DNA of 41,556 nt, taken from IMG/VR virus record IMGVR_UViG_2802429245_000005. One strand, written 5' to 3'. A program made the position numbers and the translations under genes. The number at the start of each line of letters is the position of its first letter. Positions within the stretch are counted from its first letter, which is position 1. Under the pieces are notes generated by a model. That model was not told the origin of the DNA. It did no database searches and saw nothing but the letters and a program-made list of their open reading frames with translations. This DNA comes from a virus. Its lineage: Duplodnaviria > Heunggongvirae > Uroviricota > Caudoviricetes. Shown here piece by piece: positions 1 through 36,531 of the stretch.

Positions 1-516
1 ATGAAATTTAAAAAATGTTTTCTGCCTGTGGCAATTTTAGCGTCATTCACCCTGGCAGGATGCCAGTCAAATGCTGACGACCATGCCGCCGATGTCTATC
101 AAACCGATCAACTGAATACAAAGCAAGAAACTAAAACCGTTAATATTATCTCCATTCTTCCCGCAAAAGTTGCCGTAGATAACTCACAAAATAAACGGAA
201 TGCGCAAGCCTTTGGCGCACTTATTGGCGCTGTCGCAGGCGGCGTTATCGGCCATAACGTTGGATCTGGTAGTAACTCCGGAACAACGGCTGGTGCAGTT
301 GGTGGCGGAGCTGTAGGCGCGGCAGCGGGTACTATGGTGAATGATAAAACCTTAGTGGAAGGTGTCTCTTTAACTTATAAGGAAGGCACCAAAGTGTACA
401 CCTCCACCCAGGTGGGTAAAGAATGCCAGTTCACAACGGGTTTAGCCGTTGTTATTACCACCACTTATAACGAAACGCGTATTCAGCCAAATACAAAATG
501 TCCTGAAAAGAGCTAA
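1..516 (+). CDS. Outer-membrane lipoprotein with glycine-zipper region; probable host flank
   Basis: ATG at nt 1. N-terminus MKFKKCFLPVAILASFTLAGC has a lipobox (LAGC). Gly/Ala-rich GAVAGGVIGHNVG zipper. TAA stop at 514-516. Confidence 0.6.
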   Translation: MKFKKCFLPVAILASFTLAGCQSNADDHAADVYQTDQLNTKQETKTVNIISILPAKVAVDNSQNKRNAQAFGALIGAVAGGVIGHNVGSGSNSGTTAGAVGGGAVGAAAGTMVNDKTLVEGVSLTYKEGTKVYTSTQVGKECQFTTGLAVVITTTYNETRIQPNTKCPEKS

Positions 517-531
517 CTATCAGGAGGACTC

Positions 532-1074
532 ATGAAGAAAGTTTTTCTTTGCGCCGCCATATTAGCTGCTGTTAGTAGCCCGGCTTTCGCCTCTTCATTA
601 CAGGATCAACTCTCTGCGGTCGCAGAAGCTGAACAGCAAGGCAAAAATGAAGAACAAAGGCAGCATGACGAATGGGTTGCGGAGCGCAACAGGGAAATCC
701 AGCAAGAGAAGCAACGGCGCGCAAACGCTCAGGCCGCAGCGAATAAAAGAGCGGCAGCAGCAGCAGCGGATAAAAAAGCTCGCCAGGATAAACGGGACGC
801 CGAATTCACTGCGGATAAAAAGCGCGATCAAAGTTATGAAGATGAGCTGCGCAACTTAGAGATTCAGAAGCAAAAACTGGCGCTGGCAAAAGAAGAAGCG
901 CGCGTTAAGCGTGAGAACGAATTTATCGATCAGGAACTGAAACACAAAGCAGCGCAAACCGATGTTGTACAATCTGAAGCTGACGCTAACAGGAATATGA
1001 CTGAAGGTGGTCGTGATTTGATGAAAAGCGTGGGTAAAGCAGAAGAGAATAAATCAGACAGTTGGTTTAATTAA
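532..1074 (+). CDS. Secreted charged coiled-coil protein (signal peptide); probable host flank
   Basis: RBS AGGAGG at 523-528, ATG at 532. Signal-peptide-like N-terminus MKKVFLCAAILAAVSSPAFA. Lys/Glu/Arg/Ala-rich body. Confidence 0.55.
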   Translation: MKKVFLCAAILAAVSSPAFASSLQDQLSAVAEAEQQGKNEEQRQHDEWVAERNREIQQEKQRRANAQAAANKRAAAAAADKKARQDKRDAEFTADKKRDQSYEDELRNLEIQKQKLALAKEEARVKRENEFIDQELKHKAAQTDVVQSEADANRNMTEGGRDLMKSVGKAEENKSDSWFN

Positions 1075-6426: not shown

Positions 6427-6530
6427 GTTAAATCTCCAGATAGTCGCAGCACCCGTTGCGCCGCATATCTGGTTATTCTATTACCTGAAAAACCACATAT
6501 GGATAGAAAGACTGTAAATACGAATAGATA

Positions 6531-6545
6531 TTACCTTTCAGGTAA
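6531..6545. promoter_or_regulatory. Palindromic operator-like site TTACCTTTCAGGTAA
   Basis: Exact TTACC-N5-GGTAA between the divergent tailspike (start 6426) and gene 6622. Confidence 0.6.
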
Positions 6546-6621
6546 TTTGCAAAACGTGCTGGATAGCAAACAAATTATTTGCTACTGTATAAATATACAG
6601 TTATTGCATGGAGAAGATAAG

Positions 6622-6879
6622 ATGCAGCAGTATCACTATCCACTGGAAGACGGATTTACCGAAAGGATTCACACGCCGGGAGGCGTCAGATCACTGGTGG
6701 AGGGATCGCACTTGATGAAATTACTCCGGGATCTCGATAAGGATGGATTTAATGTCGATGGCCCACTTGCCGAACTGACTGCACTGATTAACTACGTCAC
6801 CAGCTCACAGATGTCTATGCAGGATCTGCAAACACATCTCGACTATTGTGCCGAACAATTACGAAAACAAACCCGGTAA
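6622..6879 (+). CDS. Small protein homologous to the C-terminal domain of the BRO-N antirepressor at 8028-8723
   Basis: ATG at 6622 with GGAGAAG upstream. Aligns with the antirepressor C-terminus (LMKLLRDLDKDGFNVDGPLAELT...DLQTHLDY versus LMNLLNQLQEDGHDVSGAAAELT...DIQTHAEY). Confidence 0.55.
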   Translation: MQQYHYPLEDGFTERIHTPGGVRSLVEGSHLMKLLRDLDKDGFNVDGPLAELTALINYVTSSQMSMQDLQTHLDYCAEQLRKQTR

Positions 6880-6886
6880 ATTTAAA

Positions 6887-6902
6887 GGCCGCAAGAGCGG
6901 CC
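6887..6902. terminator. Hairpin between convergent genes 6622-6879 and 6902-7630 (possible bidirectional terminator)
   Basis: GGCCGC-AAGA-GCGGCC with T-rich flanks on both strands. Confidence 0.4.
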
Positions 6903-7630
6903 TATCGTTTCGCTTTGTGCTCGTCCCAGCACGTTTTGCACCATGCCATTAAGCCGTCCGCATTTTGATTATTAGGGTAAAAGCTGGTTCGTTTTCTGCG
7001 GACATTACAAATTGGGCACCACTTCATATGACGTGTATTCTTTGGGCCATCGAGACACCTTGCACACCACTTAGTCAATCCATCTGGATTTTTTGACGAT
7101 TTCCTGAATTTTTCATATGGAAGGTTTATTCTGCATCGCAAGCACTGCTTGCTACCGCTTGAAACTCTGTTAGCTGATTCTTCTTTTGGCGGCGATACAG
7201 AAGATATTCTTGCTGGCTCTGATACTGCCTGAGGTGCTTTTTTAAATGACTGAGACGATATGTCATCACCAGGGAATCTTCCATGATATGCCGGACGCGT
7301 TGACACTCCAGGTGGAAGCTCAGCTGTAAACGGCTTTGGCTGAATCAGTTGCCTCTCTTTTGCTAACTCCTGCTGTTTATAATATGTCTGGATTACCGCA
7401 CTATCATAAGCAGGAGGTGCGGAAATATTAGGCGCATTACCTCCAGTTTTTTGAAACTGAGTAGAGGTGTGTTCTATCACCTGTGTACGATTAATCGTTA
7501 TCTCCCCATCTTCGGTCTTTATCGTTTTGTTATGATTAACGACCGTACGATCAGAGATCTTAGTCTTGTTCTGGTTGATAACGTAAATAATCACCGTAAC
7601 CACACCAACAACTATCCAGAAAACTTCCAT
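6902..7630 (-). CDS. Membrane-anchored protein with two tandem CxxC...WCxxC zinc-ribbon-like repeats
   Basis: RBS GAGGAAAAG before ATG (7628-7630). N-terminal TM helix, Pro/Ser-rich linker, repeats CLRCR...DGLTKWCARC and CPICN...DGLMAWCKTC. Operator motif at 7651-7665. Confidence 0.6.
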   Translation of the reverse strand: MEVFWIVVGVVTVIIYVINQNKTKISDRTVVNHNKTIKTEDGEITINRTQVIEHTSTQFQKTGGNAPNISAPPAYDSAVIQTYYKQQELAKERQLIQPKPFTAELPPGVSTRPAYHGRFPGDDISSQSFKKAPQAVSEPARISSVSPPKEESANRVSSGSKQCLRCRINLPYEKFRKSSKNPDGLTKWCARCLDGPKNTRHMKWCPICNVRRKRTSFYPNNQNADGLMAWCKTCWDEHKAKR

Positions 7631-7650: not shown

Positions 7651-7665
7651 TTACCTTAAAGGTAA
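7651..7665. promoter_or_regulatory. Palindromic operator-like site TTACCTTAAAGGTAA
   Basis: Exact motif 21 nt upstream of the start of minus-strand gene 6902-7630. Confidence 0.6.
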
Positions 7666-7743
7666 TATCTTGCTTTCAGGTGATCAAGCATTAAACGCAA
7701 CCAACCAAATACGGTTGATTTTAATATTTATTCGCGTTTATCA

Positions 7744-7758
7744 TTACCTTTGCGGTAA
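7744..7758. promoter_or_regulatory. Palindromic operator-like site TTACCTTTGCGGTAA
   Basis: Exact motif at the head of the structured leader upstream of the antirepressor gene. Confidence 0.6.
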
Positions 7759-7792
7759 ATTTACATCGCACTCCTCTTGTGCCATAGTAATC

Positions 7793-7816
7793 GGGCACTG
7801 GCAAAATCCAGTGCCG
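7793..7816 (+). other. Perfect 8-bp stem-loop (GGCACTGG / CCAGTGCC) in the antirepressor leader
   Basis: Read directly; lies between the operator at 7744 and the terminator at 7851. Confidence 0.5.
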
Positions 7817-7850
7817 GGATTGGCGTCCCGGATTACTAAAAGGCGCATTC

Positions 7851-7870
7851 ACCGCGCAAGCGGTTTTTTT
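7851..7870 (+). terminator. Intrinsic terminator-like hairpin plus T7 tract in the antirepressor leader
   Basis: ACCGC-GCAA-GCGGT followed by TTTTTTT. Confidence 0.5.
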
Positions 7871-8027
7871 ATGCGTATAGCACGGCCACATTCGTATTAT
7901 GGTGGGCTGTGTGGGGGCACCGAAAGGTGCGCCGGGTCCTTTTAGCCGGTTACGCCAACCCTGCACAGTTCACCACCAACCGATTGGCGTCGGTAGTGGT
8001 GATTAACCAGACTAAAAGGTAACCACT

Positions 8028-8723
8028 ATGACAGCTACAAAAAGCACGTCCATTTTTTCTTTCGAATCCCAAGCCGATATACGGGTAATCGTCATTAATG
8101 GTGAGCCATGGTTTATCGCTTCAGATGTTTGTCGGGCTATAGGCATAGCAAACCATCGAGATGCTGTTCGAAAACTTGATGATGATGAGAAGGGCGTCGC
8201 TTCAACCGACACCCCTGGCGGTGAGCAAGAATCGATCATTATCTCCGAGTCAGGCCTCTACACACTGATCCTCCGCTGCCGCGATGCGGTGACACCAGGC
8301 ACTATCCCCTACCGCTTTCGTAAATGGGTTACAGGTGAGGTTCTTCCTCAGATCCGCCGCACCGGAAGTTACATTAAAAACTCGCTCCCGCAGGAAGAAC
8401 GCATAAAGATGGTTGCCGACCAGGTTGCCAACGCCACGGCGTCAGCAGTAATGCAGGCGATGAAGATAGAGAACAAAACCTACAGCGCCCCGCTGAAGCC
8501 AGGATACCGCAGTCTGATTCACTCGCCGTCTGGTGTTCTCGGCCTGACGGAGAACTCACTGCTGATGAATCTGCTGAACCAGTTACAGGAAGACGGGCAT
8601 GATGTATCGGGCGCGGCGGCGGAGCTGACCACCATGTTCTGCTACATCGTCGGTGTGAGTAAATGCCTGCGTGATATCCAGACGCATGCGGAGTACATCA
8701 ACGACAAGGCTGGGTTCTTCTGA
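8028..8723 (+). CDS. Antirepressor, BRO-N (Ant-type) N-terminal domain plus C-terminal domain
   Basis: N-terminus FSFESQADIRVIVINGEPWFIASDVCRAIGIANHRDAVRKLDDDEKG matches the Bro-N fold signature. RBS AAGG before ATG at 8028. Confidence 0.8.
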   Translation: MTATKSTSIFSFESQADIRVIVINGEPWFIASDVCRAIGIANHRDAVRKLDDDEKGVASTDTPGGEQESIIISESGLYTLILRCRDAVTPGTIPYRFRKWVTGEVLPQIRRTGSYIKNSLPQEERIKMVADQVANATASAVMQAMKIENKTYSAPLKPGYRSLIHSPSGVLGLTENSLLMNLLNQLQEDGHDVSGAAAELTTMFCYIVGVSKCLRDIQTHAEYINDKAGFF

Positions 8724-8789: not shown

Positions 8790-8804
8790 TTACCTTAAAG
8801 GTAA
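8790..8804. promoter_or_regulatory. Palindromic operator-like site TTACCTTAAAGGTAA
   Basis: Exact motif immediately after a -10-like TAATAT (8785-8790) and 27 nt before ATG 8831. Confidence 0.6.
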
Positions 8805-18218: not shown

Positions 18219-20689
18219 CAGAATCCCCCAACAGTAAGGCGAGGAATAACGGCAAGAACAGACAGCGGCAACGGGTCAAGCTGACGGATTTTTACACGTC
18301 CGTTTTTGCCCCAGTTACTGTCCAGTTTCACTTCTACTTTTCCGGTAGCATCATCAACAGGATCATCGTAGAACTCGAATTCACGCTGTGGATATTCGTA
18401 CCATTTACCGCCAGGCGTAGTCGCCCAGATGCCGCGGCTGGCATTCACAACCAGAGTAACGGAGGGGATCACCTGTTTTTTGTCCAGCAGCGTTTCCTGT
18501 CCGTTAATGTTGATATCCAGTGTTTCGAATTCAGCAGTTATTGGCAGACCGATGTGCACTACAGCCCCCGGAGATTCCAGCGTGACGGCACCTCCGGAAA
18601 CAACTTTCTGTGGCTCAACATTCGCATCAGAAAGAATGTTTACGGTCTGTCCTTCAAGATGAGACAGGCCTCCAAATGTCCGGCGCGCCATCTGCCAGTT
18701 CGTGGTGGCCGCATTCCTGAGGGATGGCGGGAGGTTCCTGTTGGCACGAACCACTACAGCGGTATTGCTGGTTACAGAAATAATGTCGCAACGTAATTCT
18801 TTTGACACTTCATCGCCAGTATCAGGATCAGTTCCAGCATAAGGGAACTGTAGTTGCGCACCGACATCACTACTGGTGAAGTACGCACCACCAGAAACAC
18901 TGATTGTATATTCCGCGCGGTAATCCCATTCACCAGAACCACCAGTGATGGTCATCGTTCTGTCAGACGTATTTCTTCCATCATAGCTAAGGCCAGAATC
19001 AACAAAGAAAGCGTCTTCATCGCTGGTAAATAAACGGCTGGACAGTCTCTCGATGTATCTCACTGCTTGCCCGTTAACGGTTCGGTTAACGACGAAATAC
19101 ACCGCATCTTCATTGCCTTCGCTGATACTGCATGTGCTTTCATATTTTCCGGTACTGGACTGTGGTGCCCATGCAAAAACCTGCTGATCACGCAAATAGG
19201 TCATCACCAGTAATTTACCGTCATCACGAATGCAGAAGGCGCTGGAGTAAGGGACAATCGAGAAGCACCAGTCAACAATGCTGTGCTTCTGAAAAAGATG
19301 ATTGGCAAGGATGGTCAGGTCGTTCCCCTGATAGCCGTCAACATCGAATGAGTAGGCCAGATCACGGACAACGCTGCCTTTCTCCTGGACGAACAAAGCA
19401 ATATTCGCCACGGCAATTGGCGGGACGTTGCTTGAGCCATTTGATCCCTGAGAGCTGAATGCAAATGATGATGGGGTTAACACTTTGTTCTGGTCGCCGG
19501 TGATGACGTACTCACCTCCGGAAGTCAGCGCCACCAGCGAACCAACATCAATCAGGTGACGGATCTCATTAACCTGACGCCCGGCATAGGTGTAGATAAT
19601 TCTGTCGTCATCCTGCGTAGGATTGCTTTTGCCAAAATCCTTATAATCCCCAGTACGGCTGGCCCAGATAGTCTGAGGGAACGCAGTCGATGCGGCGAAG
19701 TAAAGACGTTGTTGATAATAAACAACAGTGCCAGGATAACCATTAACACTGTTCCAGGCATATTTAGCCCATTTATAGCTGGCATTATCCTCGCCAACGA
19801 CCTGCGAAGGGATATAGGAAATCACCTCAGCAGTTGCAGTAGTGCCATTTACAGCAGTTATACGGGCAATGCCAAAACCACTGTGCAGATACTCCCACTC
19901 AATGCCAGTATCATCATCACCGGATCCGCCCCAGCCATCCCATGATGTGCCTTCTGTATGCGAAGGGCGCAAAGTGCCTGTTTTGCCTGCTGTAACGGCG
20001 CGATAGTAGTTACTGTCTGCACGGCGAATATCACCAATCGACGTACTCTTACTGGTTTCCCATACCGGCACTGAATCCACTGCAGGCTGTTCCAGATAGA
20101 ACAATTTGCCTACCTGCTCCGCGCCAAAAATAGAGGCGCTTGCCGTTAACGTAATTGTCCCGGTGCTGGCGCTGGCATAAACCGTCACTGACTCGTCAAT
20201 ATTGATATCTTCAAATGGCCCGTTCTTCGTTACCACATCAACCAGTTGCCAGTTGTCATGAGCATAGCGGCGCAACTCTTTCGGCGGGTATGCCGGATGA
20301 ACCAGCGTAAGCACGTCGGCGCTTTGCGTGAATTTAATTCGGAACAGATCGGCTTCAGTATATGGCGTGGCAATTTCATAAATAACATTGCTGCTGTTCA
20401 GCACCAACGCACCATCTTTGATAACGCGCATGTACTGGTGTCCGAACTCCAGAGCATAGGTCTGAACAGTCGAGAACTGGAACGGGATCAGGCGGCATTT
20501 CCGATTTGGGTATTTGGCGGCACCGACAAAACGCGTACCCGGTCGATTCTCAACGCCGCCATACTGCCGCACGATAAAGTTATCGCACTTGCGCAAAGCC
20601 ACCTGGTACTTCGCCATGTCGATACGACCGTACAACGACGGTCCAATCTCACCACCGGCAAAGCTGGGCTGGATCCAACTGATAGCCAT
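18218..20689 (-). CDS. Large tail/virion structural protein
   Basis: 823 aa in the late operon between head and internal-virion genes. RBS GAGG before ATG at 20687-20689. Confidence 0.7.
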   Translation of the reverse strand: MAISWIQPSFAGGEIGPSLYGRIDMAKYQVALRKCDNFIVRQYGGVENRPGTRFVGAAKYPNRKCRLIPFQFSTVQTYALEFGHQYMRVIKDGALVLNSSNVIYEIATPYTEADLFRIKFTQSADVLTLVHPAYPPKELRRYAHDNWQLVDVVTKNGPFEDINIDESVTVYASASTGTITLTASASIFGAEQVGKLFYLEQPAVDSVPVWETSKSTSIGDIRRADSNYYRAVTAGKTGTLRPSHTEGTSWDGWGGSGDDDTGIEWEYLHSGFGIARITAVNGTTATAEVISYIPSQVVGEDNASYKWAKYAWNSVNGYPGTVVYYQQRLYFAASTAFPQTIWASRTGDYKDFGKSNPTQDDDRIIYTYAGRQVNEIRHLIDVGSLVALTSGGEYVITGDQNKVLTPSSFAFSSQGSNGSSNVPPIAVANIALFVQEKGSVVRDLAYSFDVDGYQGNDLTILANHLFQKHSIVDWCFSIVPYSSAFCIRDDGKLLVMTYLRDQQVFAWAPQSSTGKYESTCSISEGNEDAVYFVVNRTVNGQAVRYIERLSSRLFTSDEDAFFVDSGLSYDGRNTSDRTMTITGGSGEWDYRAEYTISVSGGAYFTSSDVGAQLQFPYAGTDPDTGDEVSKELRCDIISVTSNTAVVVRANRNLPPSLRNAATTNWQMARRTFGGLSHLEGQTVNILSDANVEPQKVVSGGAVTLESPGAVVHIGLPITAEFETLDININGQETLLDKKQVIPSVTLVVNASRGIWATTPGGKWYEYPQREFEFYDDPVDDATGKVEVKLDSNWGKNGRVKIRQLDPLPLSVLAVIPRLTVGGF

Positions 20690-26395: not shown

Positions 26396-26485
26396 ATCAA
26401 TGACTCCGTACGCAATTAAATTATTACCAATTTAACCACATATGATTTATTTATCGTAGATAGTTGACATTTAACGCACGAATTA

Positions 26486-26500
26486 TTACCTTTCAGGTAA
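26486..26500. promoter_or_regulatory. Palindromic operator-like site TTACCTTTCAGGTAA
   Basis: Exact motif next to TTGACA (26464-26469), upstream of the tRNA region. Confidence 0.6.
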
Positions 26501-26822: not shown

Positions 26823-26899
26823 GTGGCATTAGCTCAGCTGGACAGAGCAACCGCCTTCTAAGCGGTTGGTCGCAGGTTCGAATCCTGCATGCCACGCCA
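26823..26899 (+). tRNA. tRNA-Arg, anticodon UCU (reads AGA), phage-encoded
   Basis: Cloverleaf read directly: acceptor GTGGCAT/ATGCCAC, D-arm GCTC-AGCTGGACA-GAGC, anticodon stem ACCGC/GCGGT with loop CTTCTAA, T-arm GCAGG-TTCGAAT-CCTGC, discriminator G and encoded CCA. Confidence 0.85.
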
Positions 26900-26985: not shown

Positions 26986-27058
26986 CAGCAGGACGCCATT
27001 GCGATGACTTCATGCTGTAAACCAGTACAGCCACGGAAGGCATAACTCATTGCTTCCA

Positions 27059-27102: not shown

Positions 27103-27117
27103 TTACCTTGAAGGTAA
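27103..27117. promoter_or_regulatory. Palindromic operator-like site TTACCTTGAAGGTAA
   Basis: Exact motif 33 nt upstream of ATG 27150, downstream of the tRNA terminators. Confidence 0.6.
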
Positions 27118-27149: not shown

Positions 27150-27755
27150 ATGTTCGAGCAATTTAAAGAGATCGCATCATCGGCTATTAGCACAACGTCA
27201 GAGAGAGTCCGCAACCCAGCACTTGGGGCATTTGTGTTTTCGTGGTGTTCTTTTAACTGGAATCCACTATTATTTTTATTCTTCAGTAAGTCAGGAATTG
27301 AAGAAAAAATAAATTATATATCTTCCCATAGTGATGCGTACCACTCACTCTTATATCCAGCTTTATGTGCATTCGCGCTGTGTGTAATAGTTCCATGGTT
27401 TAACAATATAGTGGTGATGTTTCAAAAAATTCCACTACAGAACATCGATAACTTCAAACACAACAAAAGCCTCAGGGATGTTAAAAACGCCATAGAATTG
27501 CGTAAGCTTGAGGCACAAAGGGACATTACATACGACAGAGTTAAGGTTGAGTTTGAGTCTGAGATTCAATTCTATAAAAATGATTTAATCAAGCACCAAG
27601 AGTCTTTGAATTCTTTTTTGCAGGAAAGAGATTCCCTTATTGAAAAAATAATGGCGCTTGAAAAAGAACTTGCAGAAGAAAAAATAAAATCCAATACCAG
27701 AATTGCAAATAAGTTTAACTCAAGGAACAATCGCAACACAGACAATGCTGCTTAA
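27150..27755 (+). CDS. AT-rich membrane protein with C-terminal coiled coil; accessory gene
   Basis: 201 aa on the strand opposite to the flanking late genes. Two hydrophobic segments then a heptad-like Glu/Lys-rich tail. Operator motif at 27103-27117. Confidence 0.6.
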   Translation: MFEQFKEIASSAISTTSERVRNPALGAFVFSWCSFNWNPLLFLFFSKSGIEEKINYISSHSDAYHSLLYPALCAFALCVIVPWFNNIVVMFQKIPLQNIDNFKHNKSLRDVKNAIELRKLEAQRDITYDRVKVEFESEIQFYKNDLIKHQESLNSFLQERDSLIEKIMALEKELAEEKIKSNTRIANKFNSRNNRNTDNAA

Positions 27756-29229: not shown

Positions 29230-29822
29230 TGATTACCATCCTGACGTTCTTTGAGTCGCTTCCTGGCTGCTGCTATGCGATCAGCAATTGTCACATTCAC
29301 ATTAACATCCAGACGTTCTTTGAACGCGTTGACATCAACATGCTTACCAATCAGCTCAAGGTTCTTCACCTTGTCAGGCCATTTAATTTTTTTGAGGATT
29401 GTCTCTATCGAATCCTCGTTCATGTTCATGATGGTCGATGACAGATCAAAGCCACTAAGCGTAGTACGCCAGATTTTCGGCCACTCACGGATTGGTTTAA
29501 GGCTCCCATCGTCGTTGAGGATGTCGATCACGTCCATCTGGTCGATCTCCACCAGGCGCATGAGAACGTAATCAGCACTGACGCGCATTCGTTTGTTGCG
29601 CTCCTCCATCAACTCGGCAATCCGTTTCTGAATGCGTTCATCGCGCATCATGACACTGGCTTTAACTGCCGCTGTATTTGGGGAGAATCCTGCGTTAATC
29701 GCAGCCTGAGTCTGGTTTTCAGGCGTTTTGATGTATGACTGGCAATAAGCCTCCTGCATTGCTGTGAGCGGCTTAAATTGCGTTGATTTGCGTTTATAGG
29801 TTTTAGGTTCAGCAGGCATCAT
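29226..29822 (-). CDS. Terminase small subunit
   Basis: ATG ATG at 29817-29822 with GGTGG upstream. 4-nt stop/start overlap with the large subunit. Confidence 0.65.
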   Translation of the reverse strand: MMPAEPKTYKRKSTQFKPLTAMQEAYCQSYIKTPENQTQAAINAGFSPNTAAVKASVMMRDERIQKRIAELMEERNKRMRVSADYVLMRLVEIDQMDVIDILNDDGSLKPIREWPKIWRTTLSGFDLSSTIMNMNEDSIETILKKIKWPDKVKNLELIGKHVDVNAFKERLDVNVNVTIADRIAAARKRLKERQDGNQ

Positions 29823-29839
29823 AACCACCGTGGTAATTG

Positions 29840-29854
29840 TTACCGTTGTGGTAA
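29840..29854. promoter_or_regulatory. Palindromic operator-like site TTACCGTTGTGGTAA at the late-operon start
   Basis: Exact motif between the minus-strand terminator (29866-29891) and the terminase small subunit start (29822). Nested GGTAA/TTACC half-sites around it (29832-29861). Confidence 0.55.
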
Positions 29855-33393: not shown

Positions 33394-33408
33394 TTACCCC
33401 TGAGGTAA
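33394..33408. promoter_or_regulatory. Palindromic operator-like site TTACCCCTGAGGTAA
   Basis: Exact motif directly upstream of the start of gene 33046-33390. Confidence 0.55.
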
Positions 33409-33455
33409 TTAAAAACCACATAAGACACGAAATCAATAGAGTTTAGAATATTTTG

Positions 33456-33470
33456 TTACCAAACAGGTAA
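33456..33470. promoter_or_regulatory. Palindromic operator-like site TTACCAAACAGGTAA
   Basis: Exact motif between the P-like gene end and gene 33046-33390; 62 bp from the previous site. Confidence 0.55.
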
Positions 33471-35279: not shown

Positions 35280-35357
35280 TTTTTCCGCCCCTTTTTGTTA
35301 TTGATATTGGCTATTTTGCACAATTGGAAAATTTGATCAACCAGATTTGGTTTTTTA

Positions 35358-35372
35358 TTACCTTTGAGGTAC
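35358..35372. promoter_or_regulatory. Operator-like site TTACCTTTGAGGTAC (one mismatch)
   Basis: Between the terminator after the cro-like gene and the 70-aa zinc-binding-like gene. Confidence 0.4.
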
Positions 35373-35380
35373 GAATAGAT

Positions 35381-35406
35381 ATGAAAAGACCGCCGGATGG
35401 CGGTCT
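35381..35406 (-). terminator. Rho-independent terminator after the cro-like gene
   Basis: 8-bp perfect stem AGACCGCC / GGCGGTCT with a U-rich tail on the minus strand, 22 nt after the cro-like stop. Confidence 0.6.
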
Positions 35407-35427
35407 ACAGAGGGTTGTGGATGGATA

Positions 35428-35658
35428 TCATGAGTAGAAGAAGTATGCCAGTTCTGCTTTTGAGCGCAGCCATTGTCTTGTTTTACAGGCTTTAAAAAGC
35501 CCATTCATCAATACCTTACCTGGCATTTTGCGCTTACCTGTTAAGTGAGTCTGGATATAGTGACTCGTCGTTCCGGCTTCCTGTGCGAAGGCTTCACGCT
35601 CATCCGGAGTAAGTGCAAGCCAGTGCTTTTTGAAATCGAAATGTCCGTTATCGCTCAT
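35428..35658 (-). CDS. Cro-like small HTH regulator, first gene of the leftward early operon
   Basis: 76 aa with HTH-like LTPDEREAFAQEAGTTSHYIQTHLTGKR. Divergent from the repressor-like gene. Intrinsic terminator directly downstream. Confidence 0.6.
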   Translation of the reverse strand: MSDNGHFDFKKHWLALTPDEREAFAQEAGTTSHYIQTHLTGKRKMPGKVLMNGLFKACKTRQWLRSKAELAYFFYS

Positions 35659-35694
35659 AGCTATTGCCTGATATTTATTTCAGATAATAAATAT

Positions 35695-35709
35695 TCACCC
35701 ATAAGGTAA
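35695..35709. promoter_or_regulatory. Operator-like site TCACCCATAAGGTAA (one mismatch) in immunity region
   Basis: First of three sites between the divergent cro-like (start 35658) and repressor-like (start 35813) genes. Confidence 0.45.
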
Positions 35710-35725
35710 CAAAAATCAAGGATAG

Positions 35726-35740
35726 TTACCTATGAGGTGC
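35726..35740. promoter_or_regulatory. Operator-like site TTACCTATGAGGTGC (two mismatches) in immunity region
   Basis: Second site; degenerate right half. Confidence 0.35.
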
Positions 35741-35742
35741 AT

Positions 35743-35757
35743 TTACCTGTTGGGTAA
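35743..35757. promoter_or_regulatory. Palindromic operator-like site TTACCTGTTGGGTAA in immunity region
   Basis: Exact motif; third site, nearest the repressor-like gene. Confidence 0.6.
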
Positions 35758-35812
35758 TATTGCTTTAAATTGAATCATCTACTGATTCATATATGAGGCG
35801 ATTTTCCAGAAA

Positions 35813-36397
35813 ATGAAAAGTATCCAGGACGTCCGCAGGCAAAATCTCAACGACTTGATCGACCGTGAATTCAATGGTGTTCAGACGCGGATGGCAGAAA
35901 AACTTGGAACTCAGGCAAATCTGGTAAACCGCTGGGCTCTTGGCAAGAAGGTTATCGGCGACCAGGTTGCGCGAAAAATTGAAGCTGCCGCCAATAAACC
36001 CCGTAACTGGCTTGATATCGATCGCTCGCTTTCTCAGGAAGGTTTTCAGCCTGTCGGCCCAAGCGACATTGGTCAGCTGGCGGCTCACAACCTGGAACGC
36101 TGGATGAGCGAAAGCCGCGACCTTTCAACACAGGGAAAACTTCACCGCGCATCCGGCGTCGCCCAGGTAACAATCAGCCGCCTGTTAAACAATGAGGTCA
36201 GCGTTTCCATTTCCACCCTGGAGAATGTTGCATCCGCATTCGGGCGTCACGGCTATGAATTACTGATTCACCCGCACGACCCTGCGACCATCAACTATGA
36301 CCGCTCGCGCTACGCATTGTTACCCGAAACCGAGAAAGCAAAGATCGAAAGTTACATTGAATTTGTCATCAACCAGAACGAAAAAAATAAACAATAA
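35813..36397 (+). CDS. Repressor-like protein with two XRE-type HTH domains (candidate lysogeny repressor)
   Basis: 194 aa with two HTH-like segments and no S24 peptidase domain. Monocistronic: strong terminator at 36418-36444. Operator motifs cluster between it and the cro-like gene. Confidence 0.7.
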   Translation: MKSIQDVRRQNLNDLIDREFNGVQTRMAEKLGTQANLVNRWALGKKVIGDQVARKIEAAANKPRNWLDIDRSLSQEGFQPVGPSDIGQLAAHNLERWMSESRDLSTQGKLHRASGVAQVTISRLLNNEVSVSISTLENVASAFGRHGYELLIHPHDPATINYDRSRYALLPETEKAKIESYIEFVINQNEKNKQ

Positions 36398-36417
36398 AAC
36401 TATAGTTTTCAGCAAGT

Positions 36418-36444
36418 AAGCCGCCTCATGGCGGCTTTTTTATT
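36418..36444 (+). terminator. Rho-independent terminator after the repressor-like gene
   Basis: AAGCCGCC-TCAT-GGCGGCTT followed by TTTTATT. Confidence 0.75.
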
Positions 36445-36454
36445 GCCATCAAGA

Positions 36455-36469
36455 TTACCTTATGGGTAA
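36455..36469. promoter_or_regulatory. Palindromic operator-like site TTACCTTATGGGTAA
   Basis: Exact motif about 20 bp upstream of TTGACA (36489-36494), ahead of the recombination operon. Confidence 0.6.
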
Positions 36470-36488
36470 TTTTTTTAGCTCATATCTA

Positions 36489-36516
36489 TTGACATCAAAC
36501 CAAATACGCATAATCA
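36489..36516 (+). promoter_or_regulatory. Sigma70-like promoter candidate for the recombination operon
   Basis: TTGACA at 36489-36494 and -10-like CATAAT (36509-36514) or TAATCA (36511-36516). Spacer length is non-optimal, so assignment is tentative. Confidence 0.4.
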
Positions 36517-36531
36517 TTACCCCAACGGTAA
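36517..36531. promoter_or_regulatory. Palindromic operator-like site TTACCCCAACGGTAA
   Basis: Exact motif immediately downstream of -10-like CATAAT/TAATCA (36509-36516); paired with the site at 36455. Confidence 0.6.

Follow-up and report, generated by a model that had tools for sequence, protein, structure and literature searches.

Among the closest systems described is the switch of Salmonella phage SPC32H, in which a LexA-controlled antirepressor, Ant, inactivates the repressor, as the work of Kim and Ryu (2013, J Virol 87:11775) is summarised in a later article (PMC7380047). In another account, SPC32H Rep occupies DNA as a tetramer, each pair of DNA-binding domains being contributed by different dimers; Ant, itself a tetramer, disrupts the Rep tetramer and releases Rep from the DNA (PMC9638917). 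SPC32H Rep escapes cleavage during SOS (PMC9638917; PMC7380047). Both the repressor and the BRO-N antirepressor of phage vB_EcoP_ZX5 have been tested by overexpression, and excess repressor abolished free phage, blocked lytic growth and reduced lysis-gene transcripts by 99.9% (PMC9782041). The record of phiV10, for its part, already notes the pair of HTH motifs, a terminator after each of the two genes and a Bro-N protein labelled 'anti-immunity protein'. A switch of this type is already known, the homologous phages having been annotated, tested and structurally solved.

The window (the whole stretch of DNA analysed, 41,556 nucleotides) is a phiV10-like Uetakevirus, and its immunity region is 97-99% identical to those of phiV10, ZX5, TL-2011b and HEMP4. 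Relative to phiV10 and ZX5 (GenBank DQ126339, MW722083) the identity is 97.7-98.1% and the repressor is the same. The original prediction of an immunity region is borne out: the region controls lysis versus lysogeny in a phiV10/epsilon15-like E. coli prophage of a common type, which occurs in 562 of the 5426 complete E. coli genomes (~10%). A search of the window for an attP core found none. The features in Table 1 very probably make up an OR-rep-OL immunity switch that works like that of SPC32H.

Table 1. Coordinates of genes, RNAs and candidate regulatory sites in the window
Feature	Position	Strand	Basis or remark
Operator TTACCTTTCAGGTAA between tail-fibre gene and ant	6531-6545	.	Invariant in 5 lineages; epsilon15 repressor site 19895-19911
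Near-consensus LexA box TACTGTATAAATATACAGTT at ant promoter	6583-6602	.	CTGTATAAATATACAG match at 6585-6600
ant, 85-aa small antirepressor	6622-6879	+	SPC32H Ant homologue
Additional operator near BRO-N module	7651-7665	.	
Second antirepressor module (probable), BRO-N	7715-8723	+	Promoter, operator, isrK-like RNA, C4 RNA, BRO-N protein
Module promoter TTGATT-18-TATCAT	7715-7744	+	Promoter scan
Module operator, abutting promoter	7744-7758	.	
isrK-like RNA, terminator-containing	7795-7870	+	Rfam isrK, 77.9 bits
C4 antisense RNA	7895-7980	+	Rfam RF01695, 77.7 bits vs gathering score 45
BRO-N protein with Ant-like C-terminal domain	8028-8723	+	Pfam Bro-N, E = 2.3e-21
Further exact operators	8790-8804; 27103-27117	.	
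Operator 5' of head/virion operon	26486-26500	.	Syntenic epsilon15 site 2931-2947
Operator pair	29822-29854	.	Just 5' of terminase small-subunit gene; epsilon15 repressor site annotated at 12-27
Two operators (33394-33408; 33456-33470) at a spacing of 62 bp	33394-33470	.	Between replication P gene and DUF1064/nin-like operon
Weak operator TTACCTTTGAGGTAC	35358-35372	.	Just beyond cro terminator, upstream of conserved promoter-like element
Intrinsic terminator 3' of cro-like gene	35387-35406	-	8-bp GC-rich stem, UUUUCAUAU tail; -15 kcal/mol, z -5.4
76-aa cro-position HTH protein	35428-35658	-	epsilon15 gp39 / phiV10p41 homologue
OR operator closest to cro-like gene, TCACCCATAAGGTAA, 1 mismatch	35695-35709	.	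Within cro-ward promoter spacer
OR middle operator, TTACCTATGAGGTGC, 2 mismatches	35726-35740	.	Degenerate right half
OR operator closest to rep, TTACCTGTTGGGTAA, exact match	35743-35757	.	
rep, 194 aa, two HTH-type domains, predicted non-cleavable	35813-36397	+	SPC32H Rep homologue; = phiV10p40, ZX5 ORF21
Intrinsic terminator 3' of rep	36418-36444	+	Stem 36418-36437, then UUUUUU; -19 kcal/mol, z -4.5
OL distal operator TTACCTTATGGGTAA	36455-36469	.	62 bp centre to centre from proximal
Early-left promoter TTGACA-17-AATCAT, 10/12 matches	36489-36517	+	Operon: 50-aa, 104-aa, exonuclease, RecT
OL proximal operator TTACCCCAACGGTAA	36517-36531	.	Abuts -10 hexamer, spans start-site region

Rep and the cro-position protein

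The 194-aa protein had been described as a repressor with two HTH motifs and without a LexA-like S24 domain, and the searches agree on each count. Pfam returned HTH families only, with HTH_3 matching in two stretches (the better at residues 106-147), a YdaS-type HTH at residues 21-61 and no match to peptidase S24. Residues 1-190 align with residues 2-197 of PDB entry 5D50_A (phmmer against PDB, E = 4e-42), the C-terminal half aligns with the C-terminal domain of SPC32H Rep in 5D4Z, and overall identity is 42% to SPC32H Rep (BLASTP) and 100% to the phiV10/ZX5 repressor, the protein whose excess blocks lytic growth. We take 5D50 and 5D4Z to be the SPC32H Rep/Ant structures of Kim et al. (2016, PNAS 113:E2480). 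A lambdoid cI-type repressor, in which the HTH is joined to a C-terminal S24 domain bearing a Ser/Lys dyad and an Ala-Gly cleavage site, was considered and rejected, as the S24 match is absent and the C-terminal half is SPC32H-like. Nor did a separate LexA-like repressor turn up elsewhere: tblastn of the whole window with LexA and lambda cI gave nothing better than E = 0.6, and a scan for S24 motifs found no hidden candidate. By its sequence, the 194-aa protein can be taken as the repressor of this prophage. Since it shares only 42% identity with Rep of SPC32H, from which the mechanism is known, its oligomeric state and its contacts with Ant are assumed to be those of SPC32H.

The 76-aa gene on the other side of OR had been called cro-like, a label borne out by its position as the first gene divergent from rep and by its HTH fold but not by any match to a curated Cro or HTH family. 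The protein matches phrog_35 'transcriptional repressor' (E = 5.6e-13), has no Pfam match at E <= 1 save a spurious one to RepC, and has none among PDB sequences at E <= 10. An AF2 model (pLDDT 85.5) is a five-helix bundle, for which the best PDB folds found by Foldseek are lambda-repressor-like HTH domains, including the N-terminal domains of YdaS (TM 0.64-0.66), 434 and P22 c2; the E-values are not significant, and the matches are consistently HTH. The HTH is weakly similar to that of the Rep N-terminal domain, and the protein is 58-86% identical across lineages. Such a profile might also suit a CII-like lysogeny activator, or a regulator with another target: a Pfam match to Cro or HTH families is lacking, the structure closest to the model is YdaS and not a Cro, at non-significant Foldseek E-values, and these phages are not known to have a CII-like gene. 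We nevertheless consider this unlikely, since the gene is in the Cro position at the head of the operon diverging from rep, the five-helix lambda-repressor-like fold is that of 434 Cro, the HTH resembles that of the Rep N-terminus, and the protein, like the operators, is far more conserved than Rep, which fits a reader of the same sites. We retain the reading of the 76-aa protein as a probable Cro analogue.

Operators, promoters and terminators

The 154-bp intergenic region (35659-35812) between the divergent 76-aa and 194-aa ORFs contains three sites resembling the palindrome (A)TTACC-N5-GGTAA(T), which Rep would bind. Their centres, at 35702, 35733 and 35750, are 31 and 17 bp apart, so the predicted arrangement of three operators stands. 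A site with two mismatches is uninformative by itself, about 12 being expected per window; all three OR positions, however, are kept in four other Uetakevirus lineages, where the aligned half-sites are invariant, and an exact site occupies the middle position in BUCT711, epsilon15 and SPC32H. The TCACC variant of the cro-side operator is likewise kept in SPC32H and epsilon15. This operator would lie inside the cro-ward promoter, with the two adjacent ones on the rep side: it adjoins an invariant AAAAATCAA block, equivalent to a TTGATT -35 element on the minus strand, and is also overlapped by a promoter-scan match (TTGTTA-17-TATTAT, 35712-35684). Between OR and the rep start there is no convincing match to the sigma-70 consensus; an invariant TAATAT ends the rep-proximal operator, without a -35 hexamer. 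Because the promoter and terminator scans of the window were no richer than those of shuffled sequence, all promoter assignments are drawn from conservation only.

On the far side of rep, OL would consist of one operator against the -10 element of the early-left promoter and a second 62 bp upstream, and the TTGACA hexamer of that promoter is invariant in five lineages. Alignments of the OR and OL footprints show invariant half-sites and promoter hexamers. A comparison with relatives whose repressors have diverged (42-78% identity), made to see whether operators change along with Rep, gave the same TTACC/GGTAA half-sites in all five lineages.

The same palindrome recurs well beyond the immunity region. 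The window has 12 exact copies, all of them intergenic, as opposed to 0 in 100 shuffles, and the full set comprises at least 16 sites ahead of nearly all operons. Epsilon15, SPC32H, Tyrion and BUCT711 each have 9-11 exact copies in syntenic places, and SPC32H, Tyrion and BUCT711 also share a syntenic pair with the spacing of that at 33394-33470; seven sites are already marked 'protein_bind repressor' in the epsilon15 RefSeq record. It is only positional conservation that suggests a function for the scattered sites, and we infer from their placement which promoter each would control. Beyond OR and OL, Rep operators would guard the promoter regions of the replication, nin-like, terminase, head, tail fibre/ant and BRO-N genes, and since most operons would be guarded in this way, one repressor would silence the whole prophage.

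Terminators had been predicted 3' of both divergent genes, and both have stable hairpins that are also annotated in phiV10; because the one at 36418-36444 ends rep, this gene is monocistronic, as had been proposed. The cro-side hairpin is kept in five lineages, with a poorer U-tract than its rep-side counterpart. From this terminator the original prediction had derived a need for either antitermination or internal promoters ahead of the replication genes, and of these two it is the internal promoter that finds a candidate. A promoter-like element, TTGATC-17-(TGC)AAAAT, with TTGATC at ~35340-35335 and TGCAAAATA at ~35320-35312, putatively serves the 70-aa gene and the replication genes. Upstream of it, a perfect GGTAAT half-site with a weak partner is present at position 35358 in all five lineages, and is accompanied in each by invariant GGTTGATC and AAAAT blocks.

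Given this conserved element 3' of the cro terminator, antitermination need not be invoked. That cro-ward transcription would read through 35387-35406 to the replication genes by means of a phage-encoded antiterminator has some appeal, in that the hairpin is stable and conserved, other operons are also preceded by terminators and several small early proteins without an assigned function could be candidates. We rate it as quite improbable, however: an N- or Q-like protein or a nut-like element was not identified, the poor U-tract (UUUUCAUAU) makes partial read-through plausible, and the -35/-10-like element and its operator are kept just downstream in five lineages. Moreover, the terminator-operator layout is repeated at 33394-33470 and 29822-29854, as would fit independent Rep-controlled promoters. 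An internal promoter is the simpler reading of the conserved sequence for expression of the replication genes.

Small Ant and the BRO-N module

The product of the 85-aa gene is ~88% identical to PDB 5D50_E, 'Anti-repressor protein' (E = 4.1e-47), and matches phrog_450 (E = 9e-48). The gene is beside the tail-spike gene, in synteny with SPC32H ant, whose type of product is ~86 aa long, and a terminator hairpin follows it at 6886-6903. Kim and Ryu reportedly found that Ant of the SPC32H type differs in structure from antirepressors encoded by sipho- and myoviruses. The LexA box at its promoter is kept in five lineages (the others being SPC32H, epsilon15, BUCT711 and ZX5) and is the sole strong one in the window. 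In E. coli genomes, the usual label of ant is "hypothetical protein" and that of rep is "helix-turn-helix domain-containing protein".

A BRO-N antirepressor had also been noted elsewhere in the phage, and a BRO-N protein is present at 8028-8723. Its residues 148-229 match phrog_450 and share 42% identity with the small Ant (E = 8e-16), and the window scan found no LexA box upstream of its gene; the ZX5 annotation places a short 'ash family' ORF in the BRO-N leader. In ZX5, overexpression of the BRO-N protein, which is 39% identical to that of phiV10, lowered lysogeny, reduced prophage titres ~1000-fold and decreased repressor transcripts by 75% (PMC9782041). Because of the Ant-like C-terminal domain and this overexpression effect, the BRO-N protein is probably a second antirepressor. 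Its gene should be silent in a lysogen, since Rep operators and the isrK-like and C4 RNAs precede it.

The original prediction, induction by antirepression through the BRO-N protein instead of RecA-mediated cleavage, is thus upheld as to antirepression, given a Rep without S24 and the mechanism of its SPC32H homologue, and not as to the protein: on the sequence evidence, the SOS-linked antirepressor is the 85-aa Ant with its LexA box. In favour of the BRO-N protein as inducer are its Bro-N domain and strong matches to PHROG 'anti-repressor Ant' families, the likeness of its last 80 residues to the SPC32H-type small Ant, and the ZX5 effects on titres and repressor transcripts. We regard such a role as very improbable, considering that the strong LexA box is at the small ant gene and absent upstream of BRO-N, that the BRO-N promoter abuts a Rep operator and is followed by a leader with isrK-like and C4 RNAs, which would keep it off in the lysogen, and that SPC32H and epsilon15 have the same Rep without a BRO-N gene, so that small Ant is sufficient there. 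The low identity between the ZX5 and phiV10 BRO-N proteins further indicates an exchangeable module. With the 85-aa Ant as the SOS-linked antirepressor, the operator at 6531 would suggest that Rep may also damp ant, complicating a trigger by LexA only.

A proposed mechanism and its relation to known switches

In the mechanism we propose, Rep would bind its operators through an N-terminal HTH domain, and a C-terminal HTH-like domain would serve oligomerisation and Ant binding. Terminators would divide the genome into separately Rep-controlled units. As Rep is without an S24 domain, cleavage would not be expected; instead, DNA damage would take LexA off the box at 6583-6602, the 85-aa Ant would be made, and its binding to Rep would remove Rep from the DNA. 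The BRO-N protein, with its paralogous Ant domain, would most likely be used after derepression or on superinfection.

Several features invite a wider proposal. In this phage subgroup the circuit may have two inputs, both relying on paralogous Ant domains: a separate small Ant that cleavage of LexA sets free, and an Ant fused to BRO-N that is kept off by Rep operators and the isrK/C4 RNAs; if so, the fused Ant could be a feed-forward amplifier or an anti-immunity weapon on superinfection. The 62-bp operator spacing, about six helical turns, may be matched to two DNA-binding faces of one Rep tetramer. Finally, because Ant is ~88% conserved and Rep only 42%, cross-induction between heteroimmune Uetakevirus prophages could occur. 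That a two-input antirepression circuit, genome silencing via 62-bp operator pairs and heteroimmune cross-induction all hold together is a tentative reading, which we would not expect to prove right in full.

With its operators, LexA box and second Ant-domain gene located, the induction behaviour of the prophage could be predicted, and the switch would be a textbook case of SOS induction in which a LexA-controlled antirepressor takes the place of repressor autocleavage. The gain is better annotation of a prophage carried by roughly a tenth of complete E. coli genomes.

SPC32H, likewise a Uetakevirus, has the same gene order (ant and tail spike, then the early-left operon, OL, rep, OR, the cro-like gene and the replication genes), a Rep homologous over its full length, an Ant of ~88% identity and a LexA box at ant, as well as the same half-sites, OR sites spaced 17 and 30/31 bp apart and the TCACC variant beside cro. 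It differs in the modest Rep identity, in having three OL operators as opposed to two here, and in the absence of the BRO-N/Ant-domain gene with its isrK and C4 RNAs; the replication module here is of the lambda-P type. The phiV10 and ZX5 records, in turn, are without operators, LexA box or a small Ant annotated as such, and the ant region here is TL-2011b-like, with an extra 242-aa gene.

The layout also resembles that of lambda, 434 and P22, in which a tripartite OR separates the repressor gene from a divergent gene in the cro position and a second cluster, OL, controls the recombination operon, with the repressor gene between the two; the likeness extends to 434 in the five-helix HTH fold modelled for the cro-like protein. 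However, the repressor here is without S24, operators occur beyond OR and OL, and induction would depend on a LexA-controlled antirepressor. The locus shares its logic with 186 Tum, the Gifsy and Fels-2 antirepressors and N15 AntC, which pair a non-cleavable repressor with a small LexA-repressed inactivator (PMC7380047), although Ant here is of the SPC32H family and a sequence link to Tum was not found. The BRO-N module recalls immI of P1 and P7, where c4 antisense RNA, icd and ant follow a promoter with a C1 operator, with a C4-family RNA ahead of an antirepressor gene on the same strand and a promoter abutting a main-repressor operator, and main-repressor operators are scattered over the genome as they are for P1 C1; the repressor families differ, the operator here is symmetric, and an isrK-like RNA is also present here.

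The repressor and its operators

On re-examination, the coordinates and features that the original prediction gave for the immunity region were accurate, and its architecture of divergent genes, three operators and terminators was borne out. The 76-aa cro-like ORF (35428-35658, - strand) and the 194-aa repressor gene, rep (35813-36397, + strand), are divergent, and the 154 bp between them, the operator region (OR), hold three copies of the 15-bp palindrome TTACC-N5-GGTAA whose centres are 31 and 17 bp apart, as had been proposed. Behind each gene lies a GC-rich hairpin with a U-tract, that after rep having a stem at 36418-36437 (-19 kcal/mol, z -4.5) and that after the cro-like gene a stem at 35406-35387 (-15 kcal/mol, z -5.4) and a poorer tail, UUUUCAUAU.

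Pfam assigns HTH_3 to two stretches of the 194-aa protein and a YdaS-type HTH to residues 21-61, and finds no peptidase S24 domain in it, confirming the predicted two-HTH protein without S24. Over its full length the protein matches PDB 5D50 chain A, "Repressor", from Salmonella phage SPC32H (E 4e-42, residues 1-190 against 2-197, 42% identity to SPC32H Rep), and its C-terminal half matches PDB 5D4Z. In SPC32H, Rep reportedly stays uncleaved during SOS, its N-terminal domain binding DNA and its C-terminal domain serving oligomerisation and Ant binding. A separate LexA-like repressor, named beforehand as refuting, was not found: tblastn with LexA and lambda cI detected no LexA-like or cI-like S24 sequence in the whole window (best E 0.6). 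With no S24 domain and homology to SPC32H Rep, the prediction of a non-cleavable repressor and of induction by antirepression was right. Phages phiV10, ZX5, PAS61 and others encode a repressor 100% identical to this protein, and in ZX5 its overexpression left no free phage and cut endolysin and holin transcripts by >99.9% (PMC9782041). SPC32H Rep binds DNA as a tetramer in which the pairs of DNA-binding domains are drawn from different dimers, and tetrameric Ant binds two Rep dimers, disrupting the Rep tetramer (secondary account, PMC9638917). SOS induction of such Salmonella prophages proceeds via LexA-controlled antirepressors, not repressor cleavage (review PMC7380047, citing Kim and Ryu 2013).

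Three operators are indeed present at OR, and the operator set as a whole is much larger than three: the window holds 12 exact copies, against 0 in 100 shuffles, and all 12 are intergenic (table). About 12 sites with up to two mismatches are expected per window, and a one- or two-mismatch site alone is not significant; all three OR positions are kept in four other phage lineages. In epsilon15, SPC32H, Tyrion and BUCT711, syntenic positions hold 9-11 exact copies per phage, and the repressors of these phages are only 42-78% identical to Rep here. Because the epsilon15 RefSeq record marks seven such sites as "protein_bind: repressor", the genome-wide operator set is already known. We also note that two pairs, one after the replication genes and one at OL (the operator cluster and early-left promoter downstream of the rep terminator), are each spaced exactly 62 bp centre to centre, a distance kept in every lineage examined except at epsilon15 OL, where a third site is added; both are syntenic in SPC32H, Tyrion and BUCT711. 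Such a spacing would suit a single Rep tetramer spanning both operators of a pair.

Operators and other features of the window
Feature	Position	Strand	Detail
Gly-zipper/TraT-like lipoprotein	1-516	+	
DUF5384 protein	532-1074	+	
Operator	6531		exact; between tail fibre and ant
Operator	7651-7665		exact; BRO-N module
Promoter-like TTGATT-18-TATCAT	7715-7744		directly abuts operator 7744-7758
Operator	7744-7758		exact; BRO-N module
isrK-family RNA with terminator	7795-7870		77.9 bits
C4 antisense RNA	7895-7980		77.7 bits
Operator	8790		exact; upstream of 69-aa gene
Operator	26486		exact; head operon
Operator	27103		exact; upstream of 201-aa gene
Operators	29822, 29840		1 mismatch, exact; terminase
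Operators	33394, 33456		exact; after replication genes
Weak operator and promoter-like TTGATC-17-(TGC)AAAATA	35305-35372		upstream of 70-aa gene and replication genes
OR operator	35695-35709		1 mismatch
OR operator	35726-35740		2 mismatches
OR operator	35743-35757		exact
OL operators	36455, 36517		exact

The small antirepressor gene and a probable second one

The strongest LexA box in the window, the near-consensus TACTGTATAAATATACAGTT (6583-6602), lies just upstream of an 85-aa gene (6622-6879) that is followed by a hairpin and whose product, the small Ant, matches PDB 5D50 chain E, "Anti-repressor protein" (E 4.1e-47, ~88% identity). The promoter region, comprising an operator, a TTGCAA hexamer, the LexA box and a Shine-Dalgarno sequence, is kept in SPC32H, epsilon15, Klebsiella phage BUCT711 and ZX5, and relatives label the gene only 'hypothetical protein'. 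Judged by sequence, the LexA box and small Ant, which the original prediction overlooked, constitute the SOS trigger of the switch. The BRO-N protein, previously put forward as the antirepressor, is not the principal one: the small Ant gene has a LexA box, whereas a scan of the window placed none upstream of the BRO-N gene. Relative to SPC32H, Ant is ~88% identical and Rep only 42%, a contrast under which heterologous Uetakevirus prophages might cross-induce one another, much as Gifsy antirepressors have been described to do.

The window's second CTGT-N8-ACAG match, CTGTAAACCAGTACAG (27015-27030), could be a weak LexA site or a chance occurrence; a terminator-like hairpin, operator 27103 and the 201-aa gene (27150-27755) all lie downstream of it. 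A tRNA-Arg (anticodon TCT, 26823-26899) sits in the long non-coding DNA that separates the head operon from the terminase region, and a tRNA-Arg occupies the syntenic position in SPC32H.

The BRO-N protein (231 aa, 8028-8723) has a Bro-N domain, and its residues 148-229 match phrog_450, the PHROG family that also holds the small Ant, to which they are 42% identical (E 8e-16); it is therefore BRO-N fused to an Ant-like paralogous domain, and plausibly acts as an antirepressor on Rep too. Its 270-nt leader carries two RNA-family matches, isrK and C4, and the order of operators, promoter, C4 RNA and then gene is like that of P1/P7 immI. Rep and the isrK/C4 RNAs should keep the gene off in a lysogen. 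Since it is absent altogether from SPC32H and epsilon15, and the ZX5 protein is only 39% identical to its phiV10 counterpart (PMC9782041), the BRO-N gene is an exchangeable accessory, not the core inducer. Next to the module, with an operator 20 bp upstream of its start, is a 242-aa ORF (6902-7630, - strand) that has a hydrophobic segment at its N-terminus and, at its C-terminus, Cys-rich repeats matching endonuclease VII / Lar-like PHROGs (phrog_6762); TL-2011b has this ORF, whereas phiV10 and ZX5 do not.

The cro-like protein and transcription from the region

The 76-aa protein has no Pfam match and no PDB sequence match, but its position and fold favour the predicted cro-like role. It matches phrog_35, "transcriptional repressor" (E 5.6e-13), and an AlphaFold model from 23 homologues is a five-helix bundle (pLDDT 85.5) whose best PDB fold matches are all lambda-repressor-like HTH domains, namely the YdaS N-terminal domain (TM 0.64-0.66), 434 repressor, P22 c2 and C-proteins, with non-significant Foldseek E-values (0.6-2). 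Its HTH weakly resembles that of the Rep N-terminal domain, and it is 58-86% conserved across lineages where Rep fell to 42%, in parallel with the conserved operators. The name seems reasonable for this putative Cro.

The OL promoter, TTGACA-17-AATCAT (36489-36517), has 10/12 consensus matches; its TTGACA hexamer is invariant across lineages, and the proximal operator directly adjoins the -10 hexamer. OR contains an invariant AAAAATCAA block, TTGATT when read on the minus strand, so that the operator nearest the cro-like gene would fall within the cro-ward promoter's spacer, and a consensus scan gave TTGTTA-17-TATTAT over that operator. No convincing promoter for rep emerged. Because shuffled sequence yields at least as many promoter-scan hits, conservation is what supports these assignments.

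Either antitermination or internal promoters had been proposed to carry transcription past the terminator of the cro-like gene. Beyond the hairpin, an operator that pairs a perfect half-site (GGTAAT) with a weak one is shared by all five lineages, as are an invariant GGTTGATC and, 17 nt on, TGCAAAAT; a terminator and then an operator likewise precede the nin-like and terminase operons. An internal promoter under Rep control, plus a degree of read-through at the weak-U-tract terminator, probably explains the arrangement; antitermination, the less likely alternative, is not needed.

Elsewhere, 6474-6545 and 26418-26500, upstream of the tail-fibre gene and head operon, share TATTACC-N5-AACCACATATG, invariant in five lineages, then TATTACCTTTCAGGTAA 40-55 bp on, a candidate late-promoter or activator motif. 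The two + strand ORFs adjoining the lysis cassette, for the lipoprotein and DUF5384 protein, probably represent lysogenic-conversion cargo. The window lacks the published attP core.

Relation to known phage immunity systems

The immunity region is 97-99% identical to those of Escherichia phages HEMP4, vB_EcoP_ZX5, TL-2011b and phiV10, epsilon15-like temperate podophages of the genus Uetakevirus, and occurs in 562 of 5426 complete E. coli genomes. Already annotated in the phiV10 GenBank record are the 194-aa gene with its two HTH motifs, both terminators and the Bro-N "putative anti-immunity protein". By every feature testable here, the system is the Rep-Ant family of SPC32H, epsilon15 and phiV10, already known through annotation since 2005-2007 and through mechanism and structures from 2013-2016. 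Possibly undescribed within it are the fusion of BRO-N to an Ant-domain paralogue, controlled by Rep and by C4/isrK, the constant 62-bp distance within operator pairs, and the fact that Ant is far better conserved than Rep.
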